64,000 nt of DNA, from NCBI GenBank assembly GCA_051251855.1, contig JBPOGI010000007.1, positions 1-64,000 of the forward strand. The letters are read 5' to 3'. Below, in pieces: positions 49,496-64,000 of the stretch. Both the position numbers and the translations under genes were made by a program. The notes under the pieces were generated by a model, which was given only the letters and a program-made list of their open reading frames with translations, was not told the DNA's origin and searched no databases. Origin of the DNA: Roseibacillus sp. Lineage in GTDB: Bacteria > Verrucomicrobiota > Verrucomicrobiia > Verrucomicrobiales > Akkermansiaceae. Every line of letters starts with the position of its first letter. Within the stretch, counting starts at the first letter, position 1.

Positions 49496-50047
49496 ATGTT
49501 TCAAAAGATCATTAATAACGACGAAGCGGCCGCAGGCAAAGCTCCACACGTCGCCAATTCCCCCCAAGCTTCTCAACCCGCAGCAGCTCCTTCTCAGCCA
49601 TCAGCAACTCCTCAACCACAGGCCGCTGGCGGACACCGCAACCGACTTTCTTCTGATGTTGAAATCAAAGGAACCATCCGTTTCCAAGACGAATTGATCG
49701 TCGATGGTAAGGTCGAAGGCGAAATTACCTCTACAGGCGCCCTTGCCATCCAAGAGAACGCACGCATCCGCGCCGAGATCAAGGTAGGATCCGTGGTCAT
49801 TCAAGGCAAGGTCCATGGCAACATCACTGCCTCGCAAACTATTGAGCTTCGCGCAGGTTCCGAGGTCGTTGGCGACATCAAAGCTGCCGTTCTCACCATG
49901 GAAGCTGGCGCGGTCTTCGTCGGTCGTTCCGAGGTTGGAGCTCCTAGCAGCCAGCCTGCTTCAAAGCCTGCTCAAAACAAATCTCAGCAAGGTGGCTCGA
50001 AGCCCCAGCAAAGTGGTCAGAAGAAGGAAGTTGCTAAAGCCTCCTAA
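49496..50047 (+). CDS. Bactofilin (polymer-forming cytoskeletal protein)
   Basis: VEIKGTI.F...LIVDGKVEGEI...V.G.I.A...IEL...V.GDI...L.ME.GA.F.G. Confidence 0.92.
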   Translation: MFQKIINNDEAAAGKAPHVANSPQASQPAAAPSQPSATPQPQAAGGHRNRLSSDVEIKGTIRFQDELIVDGKVEGEITSTGALAIQENARIRAEIKVGSVVIQGKVHGNITASQTIELRAGSEVVGDIKAAVLTMEAGAVFVGRSEVGAPSSQPASKPAQNKSQQGGSKPQQSGQKKEVAKAS

Positions 50048-50100
50048 TCAGACCTCCGCGAGGCAATCCAGCCCGCTCAACATCCCATCTCTTCACCTCT

Positions 50101-51276
50101 CTGTTCGGTAAACGTCGAGCTCCTGAATTCGTTGATCTCAGCTGTCCCCTTTGTGGGCATACACAGCGGGAGTCTTCACTTGCAATGTCGACAAACTGTC
50201 GCAGCTGCCAGACCTATTACAAAATTGAAGACGGGGTCGCTGTTCCTCCCGTCAAATTCGACGACAATCCACGTTATCAGGCTAGCGCGGACGAGCCAGA
50301 AGCAGACTCGGAGCCAGAGTCCACCGTCACACCGGTCCAGCCAGTCAAAGCGCCCGAGCAAAAGAAAAGCATCGAGCCCCTCCCCTCAGCCCCCGCTCAA
50401 GAGACCCGCCCCACTTCTAAGGTATCGTCGCCAACACCACCTGTCCCTGCGGAAATCCCGCTTGAGGACACTCCTCCAGCAGCTTCGGTTCCCAGCACTC
50501 AGCCACGAAACCCTCTCCCTAAAAAGGCGATGAAGCCCAAAGCTCCTCCACCGCCGCCCAAACCCGAGGCCGCCCCAACCGCCCCAGCCGAAGAAGTCTT
50601 AGTCAACACCCCATCCAAAAAAGCTCCGGAGGCAACTATACCCAAACCTTCTGAGCCAGATGTGACCCAAGCATCTCCCGAGCGCTATCGTCCTCCCTCT
50701 TCAGCAACATCCGAAACGAGTAAGCCCAAAATTGCGCCTCTTATCAATCGTGAGAAGAAGCGCGACGTCAAATGCTTCGAGTGTAACGAATCTCATGAAA
50801 TCCTCGCCGACTCAACTTCCGCCATGTGCCCTCATTGCGGAGCCTACATTGGCCTCAAAGACTACGACATCCGCGAGCAAGAGAACTCCCGTATCCAGAC
50901 CCGCGGTAACGTTTTCATTCACAAAAAGGGCTACGTAACGGGCATCACTATCCATGCTCACAATCTCATTATTGAAGGCGAAATCCAAGGTGGTGCCGAA
51001 TGCACTGGCGACTTCGTTGTTCGTAAAAACGGTAAGATCAACGGAGCCGTCACCAGTGACCGAGTCATCATTGAGCGCCGAGCCGAAGTCGACTTCCTCA
51101 GCACCGTAGAAGCTCGCGAAGTCATTATCGATGGCCACGTCACCGGATCCGTTGCCTGTAAAAAGCTGGTTCTTAAAAAGCGCGCCACTCTTGATGGCGA
51201 CCTCACCGTCGCCTCCCTCTCTGTAGAAGAAGGAGCCAAACACACTGGTAAAATTCAAATGACAGGACTCTTATAG
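50101..51276 (+). CDS. Zinc-ribbon-containing bactofilin (probable CTG start at 50101; first ATG at 50185)
   Basis: CPLC...CRSC and CFEC...CPHC ribbons, Pro-rich linker and C-terminal bactofilin repeats. Confidence 0.8.
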   Translation: MFGKRRAPEFVDLSCPLCGHTQRESSLAMSTNCRSCQTYYKIEDGVAVPPVKFDDNPRYQASADEPEADSEPESTVTPVQPVKAPEQKKSIEPLPSAPAQETRPTSKVSSPTPPVPAEIPLEDTPPAASVPSTQPRNPLPKKAMKPKAPPPPPKPEAAPTAPAEEVLVNTPSKKAPEATIPKPSEPDVTQASPERYRPPSSATSETSKPKIAPLINREKKRDVKCFECNESHEILADSTSAMCPHCGAYIGLKDYDIREQENSRIQTRGNVFIHKKGYVTGITIHAHNLIIEGEIQGGAECTGDFVVRKNGKINGAVTSDRVIIERRAEVDFLSTVEAREVIIDGHVTGSVACKKLVLKKRATLDGDLTVASLSVEEGAKHTGKIQMTGLL

Positions 51277-51295: not shown

Positions 51296-52234
51296 ATGTC
51301 TAGCCATCTCACTCTCGGAACACGCGGCAGCGCCCTCGCCCTTTGCCAGGCCGAAATGACCGAAGCCGCCCTTGCCTCCTTTTGCCAGCTCACCCGCCAA
51401 GTCATCGTCACCACCGGTGACAAGCGCACCGACGTCCCTCTCGCCGCTGTGGCTGCGGCCTCCGGAGTCGTCGACAAAGGCGTCTTCATCAAAGAACTAG
51501 AAGTCGCCCTATTGGATGGCGAAATCGATTTCGCCGTCCACTCGCTCAAGGATGTTCCCACCATCCTCGAACCCGAGTTCGAGGTCTGCGCCGTCCTTCC
51601 CCGCGCCCCCACCGGTGATGTCCTCATCACAAGCGGCCCTTCTCTCGGCGAACTACCCGCAGGAGCCACTATCGGAACCTCATCCGTCCGTCGTAAGCTG
51701 CAACTCCTCCACCTTCGCCCTGACCTCAATGTCGTCGACATCCGAGGCAACGTTCCCACCCGTTTACAAAAGGTTGTCGACCAACCCGAACTCGACGGCA
51801 CTATCCTTGCCGAAGCTGGTCTCGTCCGCCTCGGCTACGAAACGAATGGCGCTCTCACCACCGAAGCTGGAGACCCCCTCGCGGCCCACCTTCTCGACGC
51901 TACCGAATTCCTTCCCGCCGCCGGCCAAGGTGCGGTCGCAATGGAAATTCTCAAAAGCAACGATGCCGCCCGAGAAATCCTCCAAAACATCAATCACGAG
52001 GAAACCATGGCGCGCATCACAGCCGAGCGCCACTTCCTCGCCCTCCTCCAAGCCGGCTGCGACACCCCCGTCGGGGTACAATCTTCAGTCACTGGTGACT
52101 CTCTCCAAATGGAAGCTCGAGTTTTCGAAGAGGACGGCAGCCTCCGAGCTAGCAAAGCCATCGGCTCCCTCGGCACTCCAGAGATATTGGCAGATAACCT
52201 CTTCCGATCTCTGGCAAATATCTCTCCCCAATAA
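51296..52234 (+). CDS. hemC: Hydroxymethylbilane synthase
   Basis: GTRGS.LA, KGVFIKELE, AVHSLKD, GTSS.RR, RGNV.TR and GC..P motifs. Confidence 0.96.
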   Translation: MSSHLTLGTRGSALALCQAEMTEAALASFCQLTRQVIVTTGDKRTDVPLAAVAAASGVVDKGVFIKELEVALLDGEIDFAVHSLKDVPTILEPEFEVCAVLPRAPTGDVLITSGPSLGELPAGATIGTSSVRRKLQLLHLRPDLNVVDIRGNVPTRLQKVVDQPELDGTILAEAGLVRLGYETNGALTTEAGDPLAAHLLDATEFLPAAGQGAVAMEILKSNDAAREILQNINHEETMARITAERHFLALLQAGCDTPVGVQSSVTGDSLQMEARVFEEDGSLRASKAIGSLGTPEILADNLFRSLANISPQ

Positions 52235-52459
52235 CTGGCACGCTAACCACCACAGGGAAACGCTCAAACTACTAAATTCAAGCACTTTACGCTCGTCTCA
52301 CTCACGAAGTGACGCCCATGACAGCAAGAGAAACTTGATGATAAATGTAGAACCCCGCCGGAAACCGCTTTATGTTAGATAACTGGCGAAGTTTCCTTAT
52401 GAAGATTCGTTCTCAAAAGACTGTTAAGATATTCGATTCCAAAACGTTAGTAATTGATA

Positions 52460-55400
52460 ATGAATAAAGCCTTTCTCCCCCATCCCAAACGGCTTGCTTC
52501 CTCTCTGGGCTGCTTCCTTCTATGCCTGTGTTCCGCCTCCGGCGACACTACCATCAATGTTTGGGGCCTGGACCGAGATTCTTTTGGCTCAAACGTGGGC
52601 TCTCAAGGAGCCATTACAACGACAACAGCCGGAAATCGACAAACAGTGACCTACAACGTCACAAATCTGGACCTTGCCGAGGATGGATCGGCCAACGACA
52701 CCCTCACGTTCTCGATCGAAGTAGCGGCTGATGGAGGTACCGTTTCAGGCTATTCGAATGCCGATGGCGACCCTTGGGGCGTCAGCAGCGCTGCTGGCGA
52801 TGCCATCCGCTTAGGGGAAGGTCTTAACTTCAGCCTCCTTTCTTCCGACATCACCTTTGGAACTCAAGGATCAGAAGCAGGACTCGCATTCGTCGGCTTT
52901 ACTGGGGTGAATTCTTGGTTCTCAAATGGCGATGTAGGAAGAATCGCTGGAGCCACTTCCACCGTATCAGGAGACGATTTTGGGACTTCTATCGTGTCAG
53001 GAGGGTCAAACGTCGGAACGGACTTTCAGGAACCAGTCGACCAATTTTTCATTCGTTCCGAAGGACCCGCAGCCAACGGCTTTCATCTCGGAAAACTGAG
53101 ATTAACGTTCAAAGCTTCCCCCTTGAGCACCTTGTCAGGGGTATTGGACCAAATGGAGGCTCACTTGAATGGTTCAAGCACTCTCAATGCTGGGCAGATT
53201 CAGACTCTCAGCACGAATCTGCGAAACAACATCGATATGCTCGGTGCCAGCGAGGACATTTTAGAGCAAGCCATCGCGGTGGTGGAACTCTATGAGGACG
53301 TGCGTGGGAGTATCTTTAGCGGCGGTCAATTCAACCGCGATCAATTCAACAACGTCAATAATGCCCTCAGACAGACTTCATTGGACTTGCAGCAGGGGTT
53401 GATTCTCCATGGTTGGACCCCTCAGAACGTGCAACGCTTTCGAAGCTCTCTGGAGGACAAGCCTTTCTTATCTGCCAACTTCTTCCCGGGAGCAGTAGCC
53501 CCACCAGCGAATCCAAGCGCAGTCTATCAAGTCCAAATCAACGCCGATGTGCCTCGACAATTTGGGTTTCCTCACTTGTTCAAATGGGATGCCACCCGTC
53601 GCCCCACCGGAGCTTATCTCGCCCCAGGGAGCATCGCGGTGGTGACTGTCCCCCCTGAATTGGTCGATAAGGGCTATCAAATTCGAGTCAATGCACACGT
53701 GCACGAACTTGAGCGTTTGTCTTGGTATCGACGAATGGACTACATTTCAAAGGTCTACCCCATTACTTCCGAAACGGTCGAAATTGCCAGTCCCGTCGGA
53801 GGAGGAATTTACATCGATGTCCCCTATGGCTCGGAACATGGCCTTCAGACCATTCAATTCCAGAACATTGTCCGGGCCCCCTTCTATTCGAATACCGTGG
53901 CACGCCAAACGTCCCTTCAAGATTGGTTGGATACCGAGCGGCATCACCCCGCTCCTTGGGCCGACTTTGAGTCCGACGTCTACATGATGACTCTCCCCCG
54001 AGATTGGGTCTACGCTTGGGGGGTGAATAGCGGCGACGACAATCCCGCTTTCTCGATGGACCAGTGGGACGACACCATGGACGTGATCAATCACCTCTAC
54101 GGTTATAAAGAAAAACGTTCCAAGACCACGCTCTATCTCATTGTTGATGTCGCCATCCGAGCGAATGTGTTTTCGCCGGGCTACCCTCAGTCCAACAGCT
54201 CCTTCAATCCAGCGAGTGCCTCCCAAAACGGACGTTCAAGTAACGAAATCCTTAATGGACCCAAATTCTTAGGCTCCGAACAATTGCACGAGCTAGGGCA
54301 TGCCGAGTACTTCACCAAGTTTAATGGAGAAGTCGAAGCGGCAGTCAACATTCCCTACGTGATGGCTCATTACTTTGCCCTGAATGTCTCGATTGACCAA
54401 TCACTGGGACGGTCGGTAGGAGATGCTTCACGAAACGGATGGAGCCGAGACCAGTCGGCCATCCATTGGATGGTCACCGAAGATTTTCGAGAAGGAGTTT
54501 GGAACATGACCAGCCAACAGATGCAGTATCAGCAGCGCGGCTATGCGGACTACGCTGATCTTGCCTACATGTATGGTTTGAACTCGCTACACCGGTTTTG
54601 GTACGGCGACCACGTCGACTACGAAAATGGAATTTCTTATCTACGCAACAGTGACGAGTCCTACAGCCGCATCCAGCGAATGTCGAAAGCTGCTGGCATT
54701 GATCTGAATCCTCTCATGCACTTCTGGGGGAATGCTGCTGGGAGCCACAACAACATGCAGTCTTGGATGGATACGAATAACATCCCCGACTCCCGCCTCA
54801 TTTATGATCGGTTAAAGCACTACCAATCTGTTATTCCCAGCAATCTCACTCAGTTCCGGACTCACAGTAATATCTTCTATTCGCACCTCAATGCGACCGA
54901 CAAAGCCTACTACGACACCATGCGGGCCAATGGCGGATGGGGTCAGGAAGAGCACGATGAGGTCGATGCGCGAGTGCAGTGGATCATCGACCGCTTTTTC
55001 CCGAATGGGCGTCCCAAAATCACAAGCTATCCCCACGTCGCGAACTTCGACGACAATTACAACGAGTGGGGGCACCAAGAAAATGACGATTGGGATTGGC
55101 GCCTACACACCGGCCCCTCCGAGTCTACAACTGCGGGCTCCCTCGGTGCTCCCGATAACTCGCAGTATCTCCTGTTAGAAGGACACGATACCAGTAGCGG
55201 AGAGAAAAAATCGCACATGGATTGTGTCTACGACATGCGTGGCTTGTCAGGTGCGAAACTGACCTTCGACTACCACATGTGTGGTCCGTATGTCGACTCG
55301 CTCTCGGTGGACGTTCATGATGGCACGCAATGGCATGCCGATGTCTGGATCAAAGAAGGTCCCCAACAGCCGACTCCCAGCGATCCGTGGGAATCAGCAA

Positions 55401-56434
55401 CTGTTTCTTTGAGTGCTTTTGTCGGTAACGAACAAGTCGTAGTGCGGTTTCGGGGACAGAAAGCGTTTTGGAACGCCGGCGACATCTCTCTCGATAACGT
55501 TGTCGTTGATGAGGCCGTGAACTATCTCACTCTCCCCTACTCCGAGAGTTTTGAATCTGGTCTCGGCTCTTGGAAACAGGCTACAGGCGAAAACGTGAAT
55601 GGCGAGATGGATTGGACCCGTCACAGTGGCCCCACCGACACAGGGGCAACGGGCCCTTCGCAGGCCTCCGACGGCAGCTGGTTCATTTACTTCGAGGGTC
55701 ATGACAACGGCATTCAGTTTAAAACTGCCTCCATCGACAACTTTTTTGATTTCACCGGAAACTCAAATCCCCAGCTGAAGTTCGACTATCACATGTTCGG
55801 CCCCTACATCGATTTCCTAGCCGTTGATATTCATGATGGAACTGCTTGGACCGATGAAGTCTGGAAGAAAACAGGAGCCCAGCATGGAGCGAGTGAGGAC
55901 GCATGGAGCACGGCTACGGTTGATCTTTCGACTCAGGCAAACCTTCCCAATGTCACTATCCGCTTCCGCGCCAAACAGCAGCGATGGCACGCCGCAGATA
56001 TGGCGGTGGATAACATCTTCGTCGAGAATGTGGATCTCGCTACTCCCTACAGTCTGTGGGCCGCGGTAGCTCTTGCAGGAGCGACTCCAGGCACTGATAT
56101 CACCGAAAGCGGCAATGCCGATGGCGACCGCTATACCAACGTAGAAGAATGGATCTTACTCCTCGATCCCCTCGTTGCCGATCATCCTGTTTTAACAACA
56201 ATGACTACAGCGGGAGGCTTTTCAGTCACCTATGATCGACGCAATGTCGAAAACCCTCAGGTTCGCGCCGCTTGGTCGCGTGACTTACAACCAGGGAGTT
56301 GGAAGTATCATGGAGACGGATTAACAGAGACTCTTCTCCAGACGAACGGAGACGTCGAAACGGTCTCAGCTATTGTCCCCTTCGACGAAGAGAAAAAGTT
56401 CATCCGGCTCGAAGTCTGGACTTCGGCAAACTAA
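52460..56434 (+). CDS. Secreted M60-like metallopeptidase with unrecognised N-terminal domain and two MAM domains
   Basis: PTGAYLAPG, GG.IY, APWA.FE and HELGH...GEVE motifs; two MAM-like units (W..H.GP...GP..., L.FDYHM.G); start at 52454 or 52460. Confidence 0.85.
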   Translation: MNKAFLPHPKRLASSLGCFLLCLCSASGDTTINVWGLDRDSFGSNVGSQGAITTTTAGNRQTVTYNVTNLDLAEDGSANDTLTFSIEVAADGGTVSGYSNADGDPWGVSSAAGDAIRLGEGLNFSLLSSDITFGTQGSEAGLAFVGFTGVNSWFSNGDVGRIAGATSTVSGDDFGTSIVSGGSNVGTDFQEPVDQFFIRSEGPAANGFHLGKLRLTFKASPLSTLSGVLDQMEAHLNGSSTLNAGQIQTLSTNLRNNIDMLGASEDILEQAIAVVELYEDVRGSIFSGGQFNRDQFNNVNNALRQTSLDLQQGLILHGWTPQNVQRFRSSLEDKPFLSANFFPGAVAPPANPSAVYQVQINADVPRQFGFPHLFKWDATRRPTGAYLAPGSIAVVTVPPELVDKGYQIRVNAHVHELERLSWYRRMDYISKVYPITSETVEIASPVGGGIYIDVPYGSEHGLQTIQFQNIVRAPFYSNTVARQTSLQDWLDTERHHPAPWADFESDVYMMTLPRDWVYAWGVNSGDDNPAFSMDQWDDTMDVINHLYGYKEKRSKTTLYLIVDVAIRANVFSPGYPQSNSSFNPASASQNGRSSNEILNGPKFLGSEQLHELGHAEYFTKFNGEVEAAVNIPYVMAHYFALNVSIDQSLGRSVGDASRNGWSRDQSAIHWMVTEDFREGVWNMTSQQMQYQQRGYADYADLAYMYGLNSLHRFWYGDHVDYENGISYLRNSDESYSRIQRMSKAAGIDLNPLMHFWGNAAGSHNNMQSWMDTNNIPDSRLIYDRLKHYQSVIPSNLTQFRTHSNIFYSHLNATDKAYYDTMRANGGWGQEEHDEVDARVQWIIDRFFPNGRPKITSYPHVANFDDNYNEWGHQENDDWDWRLHTGPSESTTAGSLGAPDNSQYLLLEGHDTSSGEKKSHMDCVYDMRGLSGAKLTFDYHMCGPYVDSLSVDVHDGTQWHADVWIKEGPQQPTPSDPWESATVSLSAFVGNEQVVVRFRGQKAFWNAGDISLDNVVVDEAVNYLTLPYSESFESGLGSWKQATGENVNGEMDWTRHSGPTDTGATGPSQASDGSWFIYFEGHDNGIQFKTASIDNFFDFTGNSNPQLKFDYHMFGPYIDFLAVDIHDGTAWTDEVWKKTGAQHGASEDAWSTATVDLSTQANLPNVTIRFRAKQQRWHAADMAVDNIFVENVDLATPYSLWAAVALAGATPGTDITESGNADGDRYTNVEEWILLLDPLVADHPVLTTMTTAGGFSVTYDRRNVENPQVRAAWSRDLQPGSWKYHGDGLTETLLQTNGDVETVSAIVPFDEEKKFIRLEVWTSAN

Positions 56435-56449
56435 AGAAAGTAGCTGAGA

Positions 56450-57658
56450 ATGACTCATCTGCGCTCGCTCGCATCTCTTTTGGTAGGGTTCTTATGGGTA
56501 AGCATCCTTCCAATAGCGCAAGGTCATATCATTGATCAGGTCTACGCAGAGCTGAGAACCCAAGGAACAGGCTTCGAAGTCAAAATGGTGATCGACGCCG
56601 GCTATTGCCTTCCTGAATACCGAGGGGACAAGAACGAAAAAGCTCCAGACTCGGCTTGGATTAATGGACTCGACGAAGAAGAGCACGCCAGACTCAGAAG
56701 AGAGGCCGAGAGCTATCTCCGCAAGACGCTCACCTTCTTTCAAAACTCGGAAGAGGTCGCCTACGAGATTACCTTCGAAGACTACGCACAGGAGCCTTAC
56801 AAATTCTATGAATCCATGTTCGGCGCCCCCACACTTCGATTGAATCTGAAGGCTGAATTTCTTCCTGCAGGTGGTGAGCTGCGAGCAAGTTGGCAAGATC
56901 CCTACGAAGCTATCCTTCTCTTCGTCGTGAAGATAAGAACAGAAGAACGAAGAGAAAACATCTCCATCCCCATAGAACCTAAAACGGAAAAGAAGCTGGG
57001 AATTCATGTGGAGCCCTTCCTTGCCCCCGATAATTCGTCCTCGGAAGTGTTAGAAGGCCGAGCAACCAATCCCCTTTCGAAGCGTACGGTCACCACGACC
57101 TCGAAGCCTCTCGGCTGGCTGGACTTCGTGAAGCTCGGCTTTCGCCATGTCATCCCGCAAGGTCTGGATCATATTTTGTTTGTTGTCGGGCTTTTTCTCT
57201 TCAGTCCTAAGTGGCGCCCTCTCCTCCATCAATCTTTAGCCTTCACGGTAGCCCACTCGGTGACCCTTGCCCTCTCGCTTACCGGCCTCGTTGGTTTCTC
57301 AGGCAAGTGGGTCGAAGCCTTGATAGCCTTGTCGATCGTTTATGTGGCGGTCGAAAATCTGCGGACTCAAGAAGAGGAGAAAGTCGAGTGGCCGCGATTG
57401 TTTCTCATCTTTGGCTTTGGGCTCCTCCATGGTCTCGGTTTTGGAGCCATGCTGCGTTTCTTCATGCCCAGCCAAGACGTGATCGCCCCCGTCATTGGAT
57501 TCAACGTCGGAGTTGAATTGGGCCAAATTGCCGTCCTGGCCGTCTGTTTTCTCCTCTTCGGGTGGTTTACCAAGCAATTCAAGTGGATCCGCATTCCAGG
57601 CTCTGTCGTGATCGGCTTAGCTGGACTGATATGGTTCTTTGAACGTGCCTTAGCATGA
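56450..57658 (+). CDS. HupE/UreJ family membrane protein with N-terminal periplasmic domain
   Basis: G..H...GLDHILF, AFTVAHSVTL, FGLLHGLGF and FNVGVELGQ motifs. Confidence 0.88.
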   Translation: MTHLRSLASLLVGFLWVSILPIAQGHIIDQVYAELRTQGTGFEVKMVIDAGYCLPEYRGDKNEKAPDSAWINGLDEEEHARLRREAESYLRKTLTFFQNSEEVAYEITFEDYAQEPYKFYESMFGAPTLRLNLKAEFLPAGGELRASWQDPYEAILLFVVKIRTEERRENISIPIEPKTEKKLGIHVEPFLAPDNSSSEVLEGRATNPLSKRTVTTTSKPLGWLDFVKLGFRHVIPQGLDHILFVVGLFLFSPKWRPLLHQSLAFTVAHSVTLALSLTGLVGFSGKWVEALIALSIVYVAVENLRTQEEEKVEWPRLFLIFGFGLLHGLGFGAMLRFFMPSQDVIAPVIGFNVGVELGQIAVLAVCFLLFGWFTKQFKWIRIPGSVVIGLAGLIWFFERALA

Positions 57659-57746
57659 CCACGCAAGATTCTTGAAAATGCTAAAGTCCGGATAGACGCT
57701 CTAAAACCGAATCTGTTGCTCTCTCTATCAGTGTCCACCTTTCTCC

Positions 57747-60575
57747 CTAAGGAAAAGTCTGTCCGGCGGGAACGAGAATGTAGAAACGCTTTGCGTCCGC
57801 CACATCATCTTCCACAAACGGAGAAGCGGAAACATCTTCCGCAATCGGAGTTCCGAAATTCACGAGGTCTGAAGAGGCATAGACATCAACATCTCCTGAC
57901 GAAGCGAATGAAACGCTGAACATCAATCCAGAATTCGTTCCAGGGGCGCTGCTACAATCAGTGATGACGATACCATCTGTGGCGCGAGGTGGCTCGACGG
58001 CATTGGGGTCAATCACGATGCTCCCCTCATCTTCTTGGGTGTCTACTGTGACATTTCCGGAGAGAGTTAGAACACCCGCTCCCTTTTTCAAAAGAGTGTA
58101 GGGTCCGACAAAGTCGCCTGAAATCACGACATCTTCCCCATTGGTATCAATCACTAGGAAGGAAGTTCCACCACCATCCCAAACGACGTCAGAAGAAATC
58201 GCAGCAAAGTCATCACCTGTCGCGTTGGAAGGTCCCGCAATCGCGCCAAAGCCTGCATTCGCGGAAACGCTTACGAGTGTGAGATCGGGAGTAATGGAAG
58301 CAAGACCATCAATAATGAGGCAACCTTCAGAAACCACAGTAGGCCCATAACTTTCAGGCGCGGTGCCAGCGACTCCAGCCGTGCCAGAGAAACGAAGAAC
58401 TCCCCCTCCCGTTTTGGTAACGGTCTTGGTTGCTGCTCCTTGGTTAACAAGGTCTGCAGAAACAAGAAGGTCAGTGGCTGCGGCTCCATCCTCGACATCA
58501 AAGGTAAAACTCGAACGAATGGTGACGCGACCAGCAATCGTGGACGAATCAGCGCTTGCCTCACTATTGACCGCGGTGCCAATCGCGAATGCAAATTGAC
58601 CAGCTCCACTGGTTTGAATGGTGCTGCCTCGAAGATTGTATTCAATGGCAAATCCATTGTCCCCTCCCGCAAGGTGGTCCACCACTCCGCCATCAAAGAC
58701 GTTCAGCACATCAACCCTCCGGGCCGCATTAAATCCTAGCGCATTTCCGACATTCAAATTGAGAACGCCAGGCCCCGTCACGGTCACCTCTCCCACCAGC
58801 GTGGGAATTGGACCCGCTCCTTGGGCTAACTCAAGCACCCCATCATTAACAAAGGTTCCACCGGTAAAAGTATTGCCCGCTTCAAGAATGACGGTCCCCT
58901 CTCCATTTTTAATCAAACTGGTGGAGCCAACGATACCCGCATCAACGTTAGGAACGAGGGTGTAGTCATTCCCAAGACTGTTGTTAAAAGTGACTGCAGC
59001 TGGCTCAAGTGGCCCAACAAAGTTGTCCAGGGTGACGATTCCTGCCGCCGTATCGGTAAAGGTCACGCTATCATCAGCGAAGAAAAAATCATTGCTACCG
59101 GCATTGTCCCAATTCTGATCCGCCGCAAAGTCATCGCCTACAGACCAGAAGCCGCTACTTCCAAAATTGCTCCATACTAAATCAGCTGCGGCAGCATCTT
59201 GAATCACGAGAGCTGAGCCAGTATCAACTACTTGACCGCGTCCCGTATAGACAAGGTCACTCAAATCTCCCAAGACACTTCCGGTGTAAGTTAAGAGGGT
59301 CAAATCCCCAGTAGGCGTTTCATTCAGATTCAACTCTATCGGCCCCGAAATAATGACATCACCAGAAACCGAAAGAGCACCAGCTGTGACAGTATCGATA
59401 CTAAGCGTCGCATCCGATTCGAGAATCAGATCACCAGTAATCGAACCTTCCCCCGCCAAGGTGCTTTCAACGGTAACTGTTGAACCAAAATCAGACTGCA
59501 AATCAACGGTCCCAGTCGTTATCGTGAGACCGCCGGTAGCACCACCATTGCTTCCGCTCAAGGTCAAGGTTGCGCTCCCTGATTTATTGAGGGGTGCGAT
59601 ACCTACCAAATCCGACGAAATAGTCGCGTCGGCACTCGTCAAAATCTCAGGCGAACTTCCACCCATTGTCAGCGTATCCCCGGCGATTTCGTACCCAGCG
59701 ATTTCGTACGTCAGCGCGTTCGCGGTCACCGGTTCTGCAAGAGTCACTGTTCCCGAGGCACTACCACCAAAGACTGCGCTAGCACCATTCACCCATAGAG
59801 AATCGGCTCCACCTGCGCTGGCATCATCCCAATTGTTAGTGGTTGCTAAATCCCAGCTTCCACTGCCACCGTTGGCATCACTGTCGATATCTGTTCCATC
59901 CCAAAAGAGACTTTGCTCGGCAGTTGTGGACAAGGTGAAGGTCGCCGAAAGGTTATCGACCCCAAAACCATTTCCGCCGTCGGAGATGACTTTGAAGTCC
60001 GGCTGTGGGCTAACAAAGTCGTAAGGATCGTTAGGACCGCCATCGGGGCTTGAGGTAATGCTAATCGGGTTATCATCAATAGTGGTCAAATTGACGGTAT
60101 CCCCACCACCCGGAAAACGGCTGAAGAATCCAGTGAAACCAGAAGAAACAATGACCAGCGACTCACTCGTAGCATCTCCAAAAATAGTCGTTGCTGTTAG
60201 ATTGCTAAAGGTCACTCCCTCGTCTAAGTCGATTTCATTATCGGCAGGATCAGCTGCCCCGTCGACGCCGTATGAATACGCAGCACCAGCCAAAGGGGCT
60301 AGATTGCCATTGATCGAGGTCACGTCGTAGGAAAAGGTCACCTCATCGTTCGCGGTCCCATCCTCAGCAATGTCCAATCCGCTGACCGTGAAAGTATGGG
60401 TCGCGCTCGCCGTCGTTCCGTCTGCCGGAGCAACTACCGCCCCGACTGTGCCAACACTAGAGGTAAAAGCCGCGTTCAGGTCCAGTCCGCTAAGATTGAC
60501 GACCTCTGTTGCGAGCGCCGTGTTTGTAAACACCGGAACAGCCAGTGACAGTAAGAGAGATTTGTTTGGTTTCAT
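57747..60575 (-). CDS. Secreted adhesin-like protein with autotransporter-associated beta-strand repeats
   Basis: Signal peptide; K.G.G(T/V)L.L.G.N..TGG repeats; shared N-terminal domain. Confidence 0.85.
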   Translation of the reverse strand: MKPNKSLLLSLAVPVFTNTALATEVVNLSGLDLNAAFTSSVGTVGAVVAPADGTTASATHTFTVSGLDIAEDGTANDEVTFSYDVTSINGNLAPLAGAAYSYGVDGAADPADNEIDLDEGVTFSNLTATTIFGDATSESLVIVSSGFTGFFSRFPGGGDTVNLTTIDDNPISITSSPDGGPNDPYDFVSPQPDFKVISDGGNGFGVDNLSATFTLSTTAEQSLFWDGTDIDSDANGGSGSWDLATTNNWDDASAGGADSLWVNGASAVFGGSASGTVTLAEPVTANALTYEIAGYEIAGDTLTMGGSSPEILTSADATISSDLVGIAPLNKSGSATLTLSGSNGGATGGLTITTGTVDLQSDFGSTVTVESTLAGEGSITGDLILESDATLSIDTVTAGALSVSGDVIISGPIELNLNETPTGDLTLLTYTGSVLGDLSDLVYTGRGQVVDTGSALVIQDAAAADLVWSNFGSSGFWSVGDDFAADQNWDNAGSNDFFFADDSVTFTDTAAGIVTLDNFVGPLEPAAVTFNNSLGNDYTLVPNVDAGIVGSTSLIKNGEGTVILEAGNTFTGGTFVNDGVLELAQGAGPIPTLVGEVTVTGPGVLNLNVGNALGFNAARRVDVLNVFDGGVVDHLAGGDNGFAIEYNLRGSTIQTSGAGQFAFAIGTAVNSEASADSSTIAGRVTIRSSFTFDVEDGAAATDLLVSADLVNQGAATKTVTKTGGGVLRFSGTAGVAGTAPESYGPTVVSEGCLIIDGLASITPDLTLVSVSANAGFGAIAGPSNATGDDFAAISSDVVWDGGGTSFLVIDTNGEDVVISGDFVGPYTLLKKGAGVLTLSGNVTVDTQEDEGSIVIDPNAVEPPRATDGIVITDCSSAPGTNSGLMFSVSFASSGDVDVYASSDLVNFGTPIAEDVSASPFVEDDVADAKRFYILVPAGQTFP

Positions 60576-60797
60576 TTTTTAGTTTTTTTAGTTTGTTCGA
60601 CGGTCGGGAAAAGGGTTCAGCTCCGAGAAGGAGGGCAAATTTCGCAAAGCATTGGTCCAGTGGATTTTGCAGCGATAGAAAAACTATGAATCCATTTTCA
60701 CCTCAATAGACTTGAGAAAAATGAGCCGAACACCGAAATGAACCTCTCATACAGTTCTCAGGAGACGCTGCTTTCCCGCCCATCAACGCCCCCCACG

Positions 60798-60830
60798 AAA
60801 AGGCTGTTCCTTGCGAAAGGAACGACTTTT
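60798..60830 (-). terminator. Probable terminator hairpin after the PEP-CTERM gene
   Basis: aaaag..gttcctt-gcga-aaggaac..ctttt. Confidence 0.55.
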
Positions 60831-60844
60831 GAAAAGGCAGTCTT

Positions 60845-61579
60845 CTATTTACGGCGACGAAGCAGACCGAGGAGGCCAAGACCGCCTAAAAGTGCTGCAG
60901 ATGGCTCAGGGATTGGAGTTGCCGTGAGCTGAAAATCGAGATGGCCCAGGTAATAACCATTTCCGGCAGTAGGGTCGCTATCTACGGAAAATGAGGGAGC
61001 TAAAGCATCAAAGTTACTGGTGGCGTTTCCTCCGTTGCCATGCAAAATAGCCCCTCCCTTGGGAGTGTTTCCGTTGGTTCCAGGCGCGATCGTGGCACCG
61101 GTAATTGTGGGAACATCGCCCCCTCCAGTATACCAACTTGAAAGCCCGGTGAAGCCATCGAAGGTGATTGTGGCCGCTCCAGGAGCATCGCCAAAAGCAA
61201 CAGCAAAAGAATCAAGGGCGAACGAAAGCCCCTCGCCTGGGTCAATCTCAGCATCGACCCAGCCAGTAACTCCCCATTCCCCGCCAGCAGCATTGATGTC
61301 GTCGATCACGTTTCCACCCGTAGCAGAGATGAGGATGGAGACAGTAAGAGTATCATTGGCGCTCATGTCCTCAGCCAAGTCCAAGCCGGAGATTTGATAG
61401 GTCACTAACTGAGTCGTCGATTGCGCTCCAGCGGTAGTCGCGCCTGCAGTTCCCACGGAAGTGGCAAAAGAATCAGTACCTGCGTCTGTTACGGCCACAA
61501 CAGTAACCGCATTCGCCTGCATACAAGGAAGGCACGCCACGGCAGCTAGAATAAAGAAAGGGTTTGGTTTAGCTTTCAT
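60845..61579 (-). CDS. PEP-CTERM protein consisting of the shared unrecognised domain
   Basis: Signal peptide; C-terminal IPEPSAALLGGLGLLGLLRRRK. Confidence 0.9.
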   Translation of the reverse strand: MKAKPNPFFILAAVACLPCMQANAVTVVAVTDAGTDSFATSVGTAGATTAGAQSTTQLVTYQISGLDLAEDMSANDTLTVSILISATGGNVIDDINAAGGEWGVTGWVDAEIDPGEGLSFALDSFAVAFGDAPGAATITFDGFTGLSSWYTGGGDVPTITGATIAPGTNGNTPKGGAILHGNGGNATSNFDALAPSFSVDSDPTAGNGYYLGHLDFQLTATPIPEPSAALLGGLGLLGLLRRRK

Positions 61580-61733
61580 AGATTTTTTTAGTGGAAGTTG
61601 AGTTTTGAATTTTATTTGAAGGAAGAGAGCCAGACCCTTCCATTTAATAGAACGAGAGCGATCTGATAAACTTTAACGCGTTTATGGAATTTTTTCTATT
61701 CATCAAAGATTGATTATTTATCACACCCAAGAG

Positions 61734-63770
61734 CTATTTCTCCACAAGCTCCACCGCAGAAGAAAGACTCTCCGAGAGAACCGTGGTCACCTGCTCGGAA
61801 GTCACAATCACCCTTCGCAGACTCCTCATTTCCTGCAAGGGTTCAAGCGATTGAATCTTCGTGTTTCGAATATCAATCTCTCTTAAACGAAGTCCCTGAA
61901 GGTCACTCAAATTAGTAATCCTCGTCCCACTGAGATCCAGCCGCTCAAGATCCAAAAAACGCAGGAGGCTACGAGATGTTGGCGACCGCACTAATCGACC
62001 CAACCCTGGCCCACCTATCTTCAAAGCACGGGCTTCCGGTTGATAGTGAAACTGCTTTGAGTCCCAATCGGGATTCGCGACCGCGAGGACTTCTCGCACG
62101 CAAGCCGCTCTCGTCGAGTTCGACCTTTCATTCCGAGCATCATATTCCAGCATTTTTTCCGCCAGAGCAGAACGACTCCGTAGGTCGGGAGAATTCAGCT
62201 CCTGCAATAACTCTAGAAAGTCATCGTCAGAAAGGCTCTCACGTTGGTGCTTTTTAAGCGCATACTTGCGAGCAAGAGGAACAAGATCCGGGAAGACATA
62301 CTTACCCTCTTCCGTAATTCCGACTGCTTTCTCAAATTGCTGAGTGAGAAAATACATCCAGAATTTCTGATTCCAAATGTAGTGTCCAGGGGGCGGATTC
62401 TCCTCCGTAACAGCCTCAAGCCCCTTCAGATTAGAATCGAGGAAATCGGCGAAGCTGAAATCTCTCTTAAAAAAAAGATCGACGAGTTGGGATGAAGCCG
62501 TCCACGACAAGCGCGCTTCCCGTTGCAAACGAGCTTCCGAAACTTCCTTCTCCTCCTGTAACTCCTCAAGCGCTTTCAGCGTCCGAATCTTTGCTCGCTC
62601 TTCATCCGCCTGTGCGATCGTCGCTTGGCTCATGGCTTTCTCAGCCGCGTCCCGTGCTCGATTCGCCTCGTTTCGGCTGCTCTGTAGATTGGCAATGAAG
62701 AGGCTCGTGGCGGCAAACAAGATGAGCAACGAACCCAAGATAATATTCGAGACCTGACGGTTCCGCCGGTAAAACAGAGCGATTTCTCTTCGCGCCGTTT
62801 TCTTCTCTACGGAAGTTCGAAACCCTCCCAGATAGCGCTCCAAATCAAGCTGCATTTCCTCCACGGTCCGGTAACGCATCTCAGGCTCATTGGCCTTGGC
62901 CTTGCTCACGATAGCTTCCAAACCAGCATCTGCTTCCTGCTCTTCCTCCCCCACGGAGCCAGCAGATGCCGGAACGAGCAATTCCTCCATGATACAGCCC
63001 AGCGCGTAGATGTCCATTTGAGGGGTTTTGAGAACCCTCGGGTCAAAGAGCTCGGGAGCCATGTAGTTAGTCGTGCCCTTCACCGCCTGTTGCATGGAGC
63101 CATAGAGATCAGGATCCAGTAGAACGTCCGAGGTCTTGTCCTCTTCTGTTTGCACGACCACGCCTAGACCCCAATCGCAAATTTGAACCTCTCCAAAAGC
63201 TCCCACTTGAATATTGGCTGGCTTGAGGTCGAGATGAAGAACCCGCCGCGAATGCGCGTAAGAAACACCCTCAAAAATTTTCTGTAGAATACCCAACCGG
63301 CGAAGCAGAGGCCAATCCTCCTCCCCTCTTGCTTCTCGAAAATCAGCAAGAAGCGCCTTGAGTGAGCGGCCACGCTTAAACTCCATCGTAAAGAAGGGAC
63401 GCTCCTTCTCATCCACCCCCATCCCAAAAAGGTTGATAATGCAAGGGTGCTCCAAACGAGCTGTAATATGAGCCTCGCGCAGGAAAGAGTCGTAAAAATC
63501 TCTCCCCAACTTTTGCAAAGGTTTGGCCAAGGCCACTTGACGAGAAGTCCTGCGATCATACACCAAGTAGACTTCTTTCATTCCGCCCGTTGCGATCAGC
63601 TTTTTTTCGACATAGCGATCGTCTTCAGCTCTGAGAGAATCATAAAGAGGGGTTTGCAAATCCACCTCCTCCTCGCTCAGGCTCATCGGATCACCCTCCT
63701 CATAGAGCGAGTCCGCGAAAGACTCTAATCCGGAGAGGCTAGCCTTCTTCTTTTCCTCACTTTTGATCAT
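61734..63770 (-). CDS. Membrane Ser/Thr kinase with C-terminal leucine-rich repeats
   Basis: GGMKEV, HLDLKPAN, DWG and GT..YMAPE motifs; TM; LERLDLSGTRITNLSDL LRRs. Confidence 0.9.
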   Translation of the reverse strand: MIKSEEKKKASLSGLESFADSLYEEGDPMSLSEEEVDLQTPLYDSLRAEDDRYVEKKLIATGGMKEVYLVYDRRTSRQVALAKPLQKLGRDFYDSFLREAHITARLEHPCIINLFGMGVDEKERPFFTMEFKRGRSLKALLADFREARGEEDWPLLRRLGILQKIFEGVSYAHSRRVLHLDLKPANIQVGAFGEVQICDWGLGVVVQTEEDKTSDVLLDPDLYGSMQQAVKGTTNYMAPELFDPRVLKTPQMDIYALGCIMEELLVPASAGSVGEEEQEADAGLEAIVSKAKANEPEMRYRTVEEMQLDLERYLGGFRTSVEKKTARREIALFYRRNRQVSNIILGSLLILFAATSLFIANLQSSRNEANRARDAAEKAMSQATIAQADEERAKIRTLKALEELQEEKEVSEARLQREARLSWTASSQLVDLFFKRDFSFADFLDSNLKGLEAVTEENPPPGHYIWNQKFWMYFLTQQFEKAVGITEEGKYVFPDLVPLARKYALKKHQRESLSDDDFLELLQELNSPDLRSRSALAEKMLEYDARNERSNSTRAACVREVLAVANPDWDSKQFHYQPEARALKIGGPGLGRLVRSPTSRSLLRFLDLERLDLSGTRITNLSDLQGLRLREIDIRNTKIQSLEPLQEMRSLRRVIVTSEQVTTVLSESLSSAVELVEK

Positions 63771-63999
63771 AGAGGCTTTCCTGTTCGAGTCTGATTTGAG
63801 CAATCTCTTGCTGCACCCGTTTTTTCACGCGGCTCTTGAGGACATAAACACTCTGTGATCGAATCGACAATCTCTCCCCGACTTCTTCCGCAGAGACCCC
63901 TTCGAGAGACAATCGGAGAACCTCGAATGCATTGCTCGAAAATACCGGCTTGAGTCGCTCCAAAGCTGTCGCAACCACATGGCGCTGCCATTCTCGCTC
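63757..63999 (-). CDS. ECF sigma factor, C-terminal part (truncated by the window edge)
   Basis: EREWQRH...ALERLK...AEEVGERL.I...SVYVLKSRVKKR region 4; overlaps the kinase start. Confidence 0.82.
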   Translation of the reverse strand, partial: EREWQRHVVATALERLKPVFSSNAFEVLRLSLEGVSAEEVGERLSIRSQSVYVLKSRVKKRVQQEIAQIRLEQESLYDQK

Positions 64000-64000
64000 A

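Follow-up and report, generated by a model that had tools for sequence, protein, structure and literature searches.

Three neighbouring genes in a 64,000-nucleotide stretch of DNA from Roseibacillus sp. (assembly GCA_051251855.1, contig JBPOGI010000007.1, positions 1 to 64,000; hereafter the window, meaning the whole stretch analysed) encode a secreted M60 peptidase, a secreted protein with PATR repeats, and a PEP-CTERM protein, all of which begin with a similar domain. This raises the question of whether the domain belongs to a dedicated docking system of this locus or is a part reused by different surface proteins. We find that it has many homologs with varied fusion partners and anchors, and we consider it probably a reusable plug-in part that would grip a surface glycan, rather than a piece of a dedicated docking system.

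A domain shared by three secreted proteins

The three proteins have in common an N-terminal domain of ~195 residues, which directly follows their hydrophobic N-termini (signal peptides were judged by eye). Confidence in the predicted models is given below as pLDDT (predicted local distance difference test) and pTM (predicted template modelling score).

52544..53125, plus strand: domain copy 1, in the M60 peptidase; predicted jelly-roll beta-sandwich (pLDDT 90.6)
59922..60509, minus strand: domain copy 2, in the PATR protein; belongs to a sub-clade other than that of copies 1 and 3
60914..61507, minus strand: domain copy 3, in the PEP-CTERM protein; predicted jelly-roll beta-sandwich (pLDDT 89.7, pTM 0.87)

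End-to-end alignment of the three segments gave pairwise identities of 36–42% (67/185, 81/193, and 70/188). Smith-Waterman scores of the segment pairs (225, 333, and 232) were far above those of shuffled sequences (means 50–53, maxima 88–114, 500 shuffles each). An earlier interpretation made without database searches (hereafter the sequence-only reading) had claimed that three neighbouring exported proteins share an N-terminal domain, and these scores bear it out; the conserved motifs that it quoted are all present in the segments. Its description of the PEP-CTERM protein as essentially the domain alone also holds, as this protein consists of a signal-like N-terminus, the domain, and the PEP-CTERM region.

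The sequence-only reading could not assign the domain to a known family, and our searches agree. No Pfam or NCBIfam model matches it in the three window copies or in 102 family members, and no PDB chain matches it by sequence. The best result of an ESM Atlas search (0.86) was to unnamed clusters, which we treat as a lead only. Literature searches, which reached few subscription journals, brought up no study of the domain or of domains shared locally between PEP-CTERM proteins and enzymes. The best reading is that the domain is an uncatalogued module of choice-of-anchor type that resembles carbohydrate-binding modules (CBMs), new to Pfam and NCBIfam and of a kind already known.

Breadth of the family, fusion partners, and anchors

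Homologs of the domain are mostly small anchored proteins. A profile built from seven copies matched 152 representative proteins (E ≤ 0.001) among 1.84 billion, a few of which are repeat-driven noise with short matches only (e.g., P0045, P0054, P0127, and P0137). With a profile built from many of the same rows, 132 stored proteins matched over 120 positions or more: 92 with PEP-CTERM ends, 24 long proteins without PEP-CTERM, and 16 short proteins without it, some of them fragments. Of these 132 members, 91 are at most 330 amino acids (aa) long, with the domain standing alone on an anchor.

Fusion partners were diverse. Across 25 long proteins that we scanned, they included sulfatase, SASA esterase, glycoside hydrolase (GH) 30-like, beta-helix/GH141-like, CBM96, immunoglobulin (Ig)-like, and M60 domains, the last only in close homologs (P0016, P0021). 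The domain can be N-terminal, internal, or C-terminal, and two to three tandem copies also occur in proteins without an enzyme. Elsewhere in this genome the domain forms a fusion with a DUF1800 protein (C11:283326-287108), and two proteins of relatives (L080, L087) with the same C-terminal motif are probably orthologs of this fusion.

Anchors varied as well. Among 102 members, 75 carry PEP-CTERM and 2 carry Dockerin_1, and further members end in F-[YI]-R-type tails. Several stand-alone copies have, instead of PEP-CTERM, a short conserved tail similar to LLGVGGITLIL or LISIGGISIIL (L040:6622-7422, L042:7777-8544, L043:9103-9903; P0059, P0099), possibly another sorting tag. Separately, the M60 protein, the PATR protein, and most of the partner proteins described below have an F-[YFI]-R-[VL]-type tail where their anchored counterparts carry PEP-CTERM. 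No Pfam or NCBIfam model matches this tail.

The distribution of the domain is patchy. A narrow profile found it in 2 of 60 relatives and in none of eight genomes of the same genus. It was present in 25 of 400 genomes of the family and, at E ≤ 1e-8, in 14 of 400 genomes across the phylum, although the profile used for the phylum included the PEP tail and some of these matches are to the tail only. From the tail styles of the nearest members, we presume that other PVC (Planctomycetota, Verrucomicrobiota, and Chlamydiota) lineages hold it too.

Predicted fold and the case for glycan binding

AlphaFold2 models of the PEP-CTERM copy (pLDDT 89.7) and the M60 copy (90.6) are all-beta, and the predicted fold class is a jelly-roll beta-sandwich like that of known CBMs, a common fold that says little about function. 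The top structural match of both models was 9q5u_A, a putative CBM of an A. salmonicida adhesin (PEP-CTERM copy: Z 9.0, root-mean-square deviation 3.5, 132 aligned residues; M60 copy: Z 8.6, 3.1, and 123). Next came Vip1 (Z 7.5–7.6), then CBM8, 22, 29, 6, 15, 35, and 36 and esterase-attached sandwiches (Z 6–7.5). The two models fit the earlier suggestion of an unrecognised, lectin-like cell-surface module.

Positions conserved across the family are G19, Y37, an L-D-x-D-G-x-G-x-x-N-D loop, G91-E92, G118-F119, and R186, with D52 kept in 100 of 101 rows and E92 in 76 of 102. The canonical calcium-loop motif is Dx[DN]xDG. The window loops read DLAEDG, DIAEDG, and DLAEDM; a strict Dx[DN]x[DN]G occurs in 16 of 160 domain rows and a looser acidic-loop pattern in 103 of 160. 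A calcium site in the conserved acidic loop (D-x-x-x-x-G-x-x-N-D) is plausible. The sequence-only reading had listed calcium binding as an option; what stands of this is a conserved loop that could bind the ion, while binding itself is something we infer.

Because of the CBM-like fold, the fusions to glycan enzymes, the varied anchors, and the local sharing described below, we think that the domain probably binds a glycan and has three uses in this cassette. The PEP-CTERM protein, in which it stands alone, would be a lectin anchored to the cell surface; at the end of the PATR stalk the domain would form the tip of an adhesin; and in the M60 protein it would direct a glycoprotein peptidase to its substrate. 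Clustering of the copies could result from modules being copied between neighbouring genes, from genes for the same substrate being kept together, or from both.

Several observations weigh against glycan binding. A Foldseek search of the PDB returned nothing at E ≤ 0.001 (CBM32s are among the weaker rows), and Z scores of 6–9 are near the level of any common beta-sandwich. The same fold is found in toxin receptor-binding, MAM, and reelin domains, and the top match 9q5u_A is itself only a "putative" CBM. Arg186, present in 63 of 98 family rows, is absent from the three window copies, and where the family consensus of the loop is DLDGDG, the window has DLAEDG. Of the aromatic residues, those conserved best (Y37, F116, F119, and F166) are located on strands and may belong to the core, and there is no invariant exposed Trp among the aligned family members. 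Finally, the DUF1800 fusion partner is not a glycan enzyme.

The same conservation pattern could mean that the domain is a structural or calcium-binding spacer or stabiliser without a specific ligand, its clustering being only a side effect of local recombination among genes for secreted proteins. Such a role fits the most conserved residues, which are glycines, core hydrophobics, and the acidic loop (D52, E92), as well as the lack of a clear conserved sugar platform and the patchy presence in same-genus and family genomes. However, a mere spacer leaves unexplained why most members consist only of the domain and an anchor, and the domain sits at the N-terminal tip of stalked proteins; we regard this explanation as unlikely.

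Co-location of PEP-CTERM passengers with their homologs

Domain sharing between PEP-CTERM proteins and their neighbours recurs across this 4.96-Mb genome, which has two exosortase genes (PF09721 over cut-off). We identified 86 pattern-defined PEP-CTERM open reading frames, 25 of which have a non-PEP-CTERM homolog of the passenger in the same genome. In 14 of these 25 cases, including that of the window, the homolog lies within 20 kb. When the positions of the PEP-CTERM genes were permuted 5000 times, such cases averaged 0.42 and never exceeded 4. The shared domains differ from cassette to cassette (e.g., C1:565729/566722, C1:276915/271903, C8:347954/344994/341813/332492, and C8:238203/240204). 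Among 17 partner or neighbour proteins scanned were four sulfatases and one each of SASA esterase, GSDH, PATR, DUF1800, and Ig-like proteins, with eight lacking a Pfam match; most partner proteins end in an F-[YFI]-R-type tail. For the domain of the window itself, a broader profile detected a second adjacent pair (C11:282097/283326) and a tandem-copy protein on C7.

Loci of relatives show a similar pattern: 4 of 31 other PEP-CTERM proteins have a non-PEP-CTERM homolog, in all four cases in their own locus. In one locus, a PEP-CTERM passenger of another family (L050:11651-12373) is 28% identical to part of the ~480–500-aa anti-sigma-like protein of the same cassette (L050:14200-15699), hinting that sensor and surface protein may bind the same ligand.

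Related loci and the origin of the trio

We compared 39 loci of relatives picked from family and phylum genome scans, of which 37 hold the domain and about ten are cut by contig ends. A Ser/Thr kinase is present in none of the 37 domain-holding loci. An extracytoplasmic function (ECF) sigma gene is present in eight, followed by a ~500-aa anti-sigma-like gene where looked at, and the ECF profile may miss other types. Multi-domain copies occur in 12 loci, 4 of which have a PEP-CTERM copy in the same fetched stretch; PEP-CTERM copies occur in 29 loci, 4 of which have a multi-domain copy nearby. Within the fetched stretches, which are parts of genomes, anchor and potential partner are thus not obligately found together, unlike in docking scaffolds of the cohesin-dockerin type. 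A search with an alignment of the three window sequences returned no related genome or metagenome contig, and the loci compared here come from relatives other than the closest homologs (P0005, P0014-P0016, and P0021).

In a 37-row tree, the PEP-CTERM copy is sister to the M60 copies (support 96/89), and the PATR copy groups with proteins of other origin that have PEP or dockerin tails (99/96). A 160-row quick tree lacked the M60 copy (P0001), which had been dropped in de-duplication. Recent local triplication was rejected, as a clade of the three window copies and their close orthologs had an approximately unbiased p-value (p-AU) of 3.5e-5, for a test group chosen after seeing the tree. Because of the tree and this result, we regard the trio as an assembly of old paralogs, with likely sequence sharing between the PEP-CTERM and M60 genes.

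These results do not support the proposal that the M60 peptidase, the adhesin, and a PEP-CTERM scaffold form a dedicated system under ECF-kinase control. Kinases are lacking in the related loci, pairings are infrequent, the PATR copy belongs to another clade, and the ECF gene carries stop codons (see below). The sequence-only reading had called for a check of whether the domain co-occurs with ECF-kinase pairs and M60 genes: none of the 37 related loci has the kinase, and M60 fusions were seen only in close homologs.

A different form of docking would be a homotypic code, in which the PEP-CTERM copy is a membrane-anchored hook for the like domain on neighbouring enzymes or adhesins and each cassette uses its own domain family. 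PEP-CTERM genes would then be anchored "twins" of neighbouring secreted enzymes, and binding between twins, direct or bridged by a shared glycan and Ca2+, would build locus-specific surface degradation complexes, cellulosome-like without cohesins. The strong co-location in this genome and in relatives' loci, the second same-family pair on C11, side-by-side PEP-CTERM and sulfatase pairs in two loci (L039, L040), and the sister position of the PEP-CTERM and M60 copies all fit this idea. There is also a precedent in TraA, whose lectin-fold domain on a sortase-type tag is needed in both partner cells (PMC3325183). However, a PEP-CTERM copy is missing from the stretch of 8 of the 12 multi-domain copies, and 25 of 29 PEP-CTERM copies lack a multi-domain neighbour, with some loci cut by contig ends. 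In addition, the enzymes already have a C-terminal tail module of their own, tandem and internal copies fit avidity better, and the copies of this locus are only 36–42% identical, the PATR copy being of another sub-clade. We therefore consider twin docking improbable. Co-location as such fits three causes, namely, local module copying, selection for a shared substrate, and docking; the first two are not distinguished by our data, which argue against docking as an obligate arrangement.

Least probable, in our view, is a protein- or peptide-binding domain of adhesin or receptor-binding type that recognises, for example, the polypeptide of a substrate glycoprotein or a host surface protein, which would suit the structural neighbours among toxin receptor-binding, MAM, neuropilin, and gingipain adhesin domains (Z 5.5–7.6) and the local fusion to a peptidase, but most catalytic fusion partners act on glycans or glycan substituents and CBMs dominate the structural match lists.

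Genes of the cassette and their surroundings

The genes around the three domain copies are as follows.

52454..56434, plus strand: secreted M60-like metallopeptidase, 1326 aa; likely start ATG at 52460
56450..57658, plus strand: HupE/UreJ_2 protein, 402 aa, with a C-terminal HupE/UreJ_2 membrane domain (Pfam)
57747..60575, minus strand: secreted PATR protein, 942 aa, with PATR (autotransporter-type beta-strand) repeats and a KRFYILV-type C-terminal tail
60845..61579, minus strand: PEP-CTERM protein, 244 aa, with the shared domain, PEP motif (60902-60910), hydrophobic helix, and basic tail
61734..63803, minus strand: Ser/Thr protein kinase with C-terminal leucine-rich repeats (LRR); Pkinase and LRR_4 (Pfam), intact frame
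63757..64000, minus strand, running on to contig position 64374: kinase-associated ECF sigma gene, 3' part in the window; two in-frame stops in its N-terminal part

In the M60 peptidase, Pfam places M60-like_N (aa 361-463), Peptidase_M60 (473-758), and two MAM domains after the shared domain. The enzyme is likely active, judging by HELGH (54287-54301) and a Glu-containing motif downstream, which we take to be the M60/gluzincin pattern. Its C-terminal tail ends in a KKFIRLEV-type sequence. Domain scans of the PATR protein gave no autotransporter barrel match, and BLASTP did not align the C-termini of the M60 and PATR proteins, so that the resemblance of their tails is limited to the motif. The PEP-CTERM protein matches Pfam PF07589 at 23.8 bits (cut-off 20.7).

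The HupE/UreJ_2 gene lies directly behind the M60 gene, and its product has a long N-terminal extension and lacks the shared domain. Two adjacent bactofilin-domain genes lie at 49496-51276, the second encoding zinc-ribbon-like motifs and a Pro-rich linker. The cassette sits between hemC (51296-52234) and a gene that by eye looks like cobA/hemD (L002:2671-4167), a position that suggests insertion into a tetrapyrrole gene pair. Its GC content is 51.6%, compared with 54.3% in the rest of the window.

ECF sigma factor and kinase

The kinase gene lies 154 bp upstream of the PEP-CTERM gene. The adjoining pair of ECF sigma factor and LRR kinase that had been read from the sequence is there in part: the kinase has its Pkinase and LRR_4 domains and an intact frame, but the ECF gene (contig 64374-63757, 205 codons) is interrupted, just outside the window, by two stops, TAG (codon 16) and TGA (codon 46). 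The gene aligns to two intact paralogs at 35–39% identity across both stops. At the stops, contigs from runs X1 (depth 28) and X4 (depth ~4480) have the same sequence, although these runs may be the source of this DNA; the sequencing runs that contain it are seawater metagenomes, and no RNA run is listed among them. Recoding was ruled out, as the stops are of two kinds. Because translation from a start downstream of both stops would leave out the beginning of region 2, the gene is probably a pseudogene and its sigma factor dead.

Six ECF-kinase pairs are found among nine ECF matches in the genome, and the pair described here is the only one with a PEP-CTERM gene no further than 3 kb away. The two closest paralogous pairs also lie directly upstream of large secreted proteins. 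Pairs of this type often head cassettes in this genome, but the one here is probably inactive; ancestral control of the cassette by the pair is plausible. A promoter and terminator scan gave chance levels only, and inspection by eye established no shared ECF promoter motif.

Comparison with known systems

In marine Verrucomicrobiota, PEP-CTERM proteins of unknown function number in the dozens, and one passenger family now has a predicted fold and a profile. The permutation test shows a systematic reuse of PEP-CTERM passengers in large secreted enzymes encoded next to them. If the passengers bind glycans, they would be a source of new CBM families whose ligands the neighbouring enzymes hint at. 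Binding between twins, if it occurs, would be a new way to build surface enzyme complexes and would explain many orphan PEP-CTERM proteins.

The PEP motif, transmembrane helix, and basic tail of the anchored protein, together with exosortases in the genome, match the PEP-CTERM/exosortase system (Haft 2006, PMC1569441). That paper describes most PEP-CTERM passengers as lacking homologs, whereas in this genome 25 of 86 have a non-PEP-CTERM homolog, which is nearby in 14 cases. Kinase-associated ECF groups (ECF43, 59-62, 217, 267, and 283; PMC7826278) likewise have the ECF gene directly upstream of a Ser/Thr kinase with no anti-sigma factor seen, and ECFs under phosphorylation control are known from the same source. 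The local ECF differs in its two premature stops, and the pairing is not conserved with the domain family. Myxobacterial TraA resembles the PEP-CTERM protein in combining a lectin-fold N-terminal domain with a sortase-type tag, but the PA14 family, Cys repeats, and TraB partner of TraA (PMC3325183) were not seen here.

The closest parallels are with CBMs and choice-of-anchor domains. Like jelly-roll CBMs (CBM6, 8, 15, 22, 29, 32, 35, and 36; galactose-binding-domain-like), the domain has a predicted beta-sandwich (Z 6–7.3), occurs on secreted enzymes, and forms tandem copies. It is a non-catalytic module contiguous with SASA esterases, GH30-like and beta-helix/GH141-like proteins, and sulfatases, as in CAZy-type CBMs, and a CBM32 sits on the M60 peptidase ZmpB (7jfs; a weak Foldseek row). 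Unlike jelly-roll CBMs, it has no Pfam or PDB sequence match, is longer than most at ~195 aa, and stands mostly alone on PEP-CTERM. The putative CBM of the A. salmonicida adhesin (9q5u) is the best structural match at 14–17% identity. In contrast to the RTX adhesin CBM and split-domain modules described in bioRxiv 10.1101/2025.09.30.679566, the domain is not inserted in a split Ig domain and shows no RTX/type I secretion (T1SS) signal. Choice-of-anchor domains (NCBIfam; bioRxiv 10.1101/2023.03.06.531300) are alike in that one passenger is joined to several C-terminal anchors, here PEP-CTERM, dockerin-like, and F-[YI]-R-type. The domain differs in matching no existing NCBIfam choice-of-anchor model, and the choice_anch_D matches in two members lie outside it.

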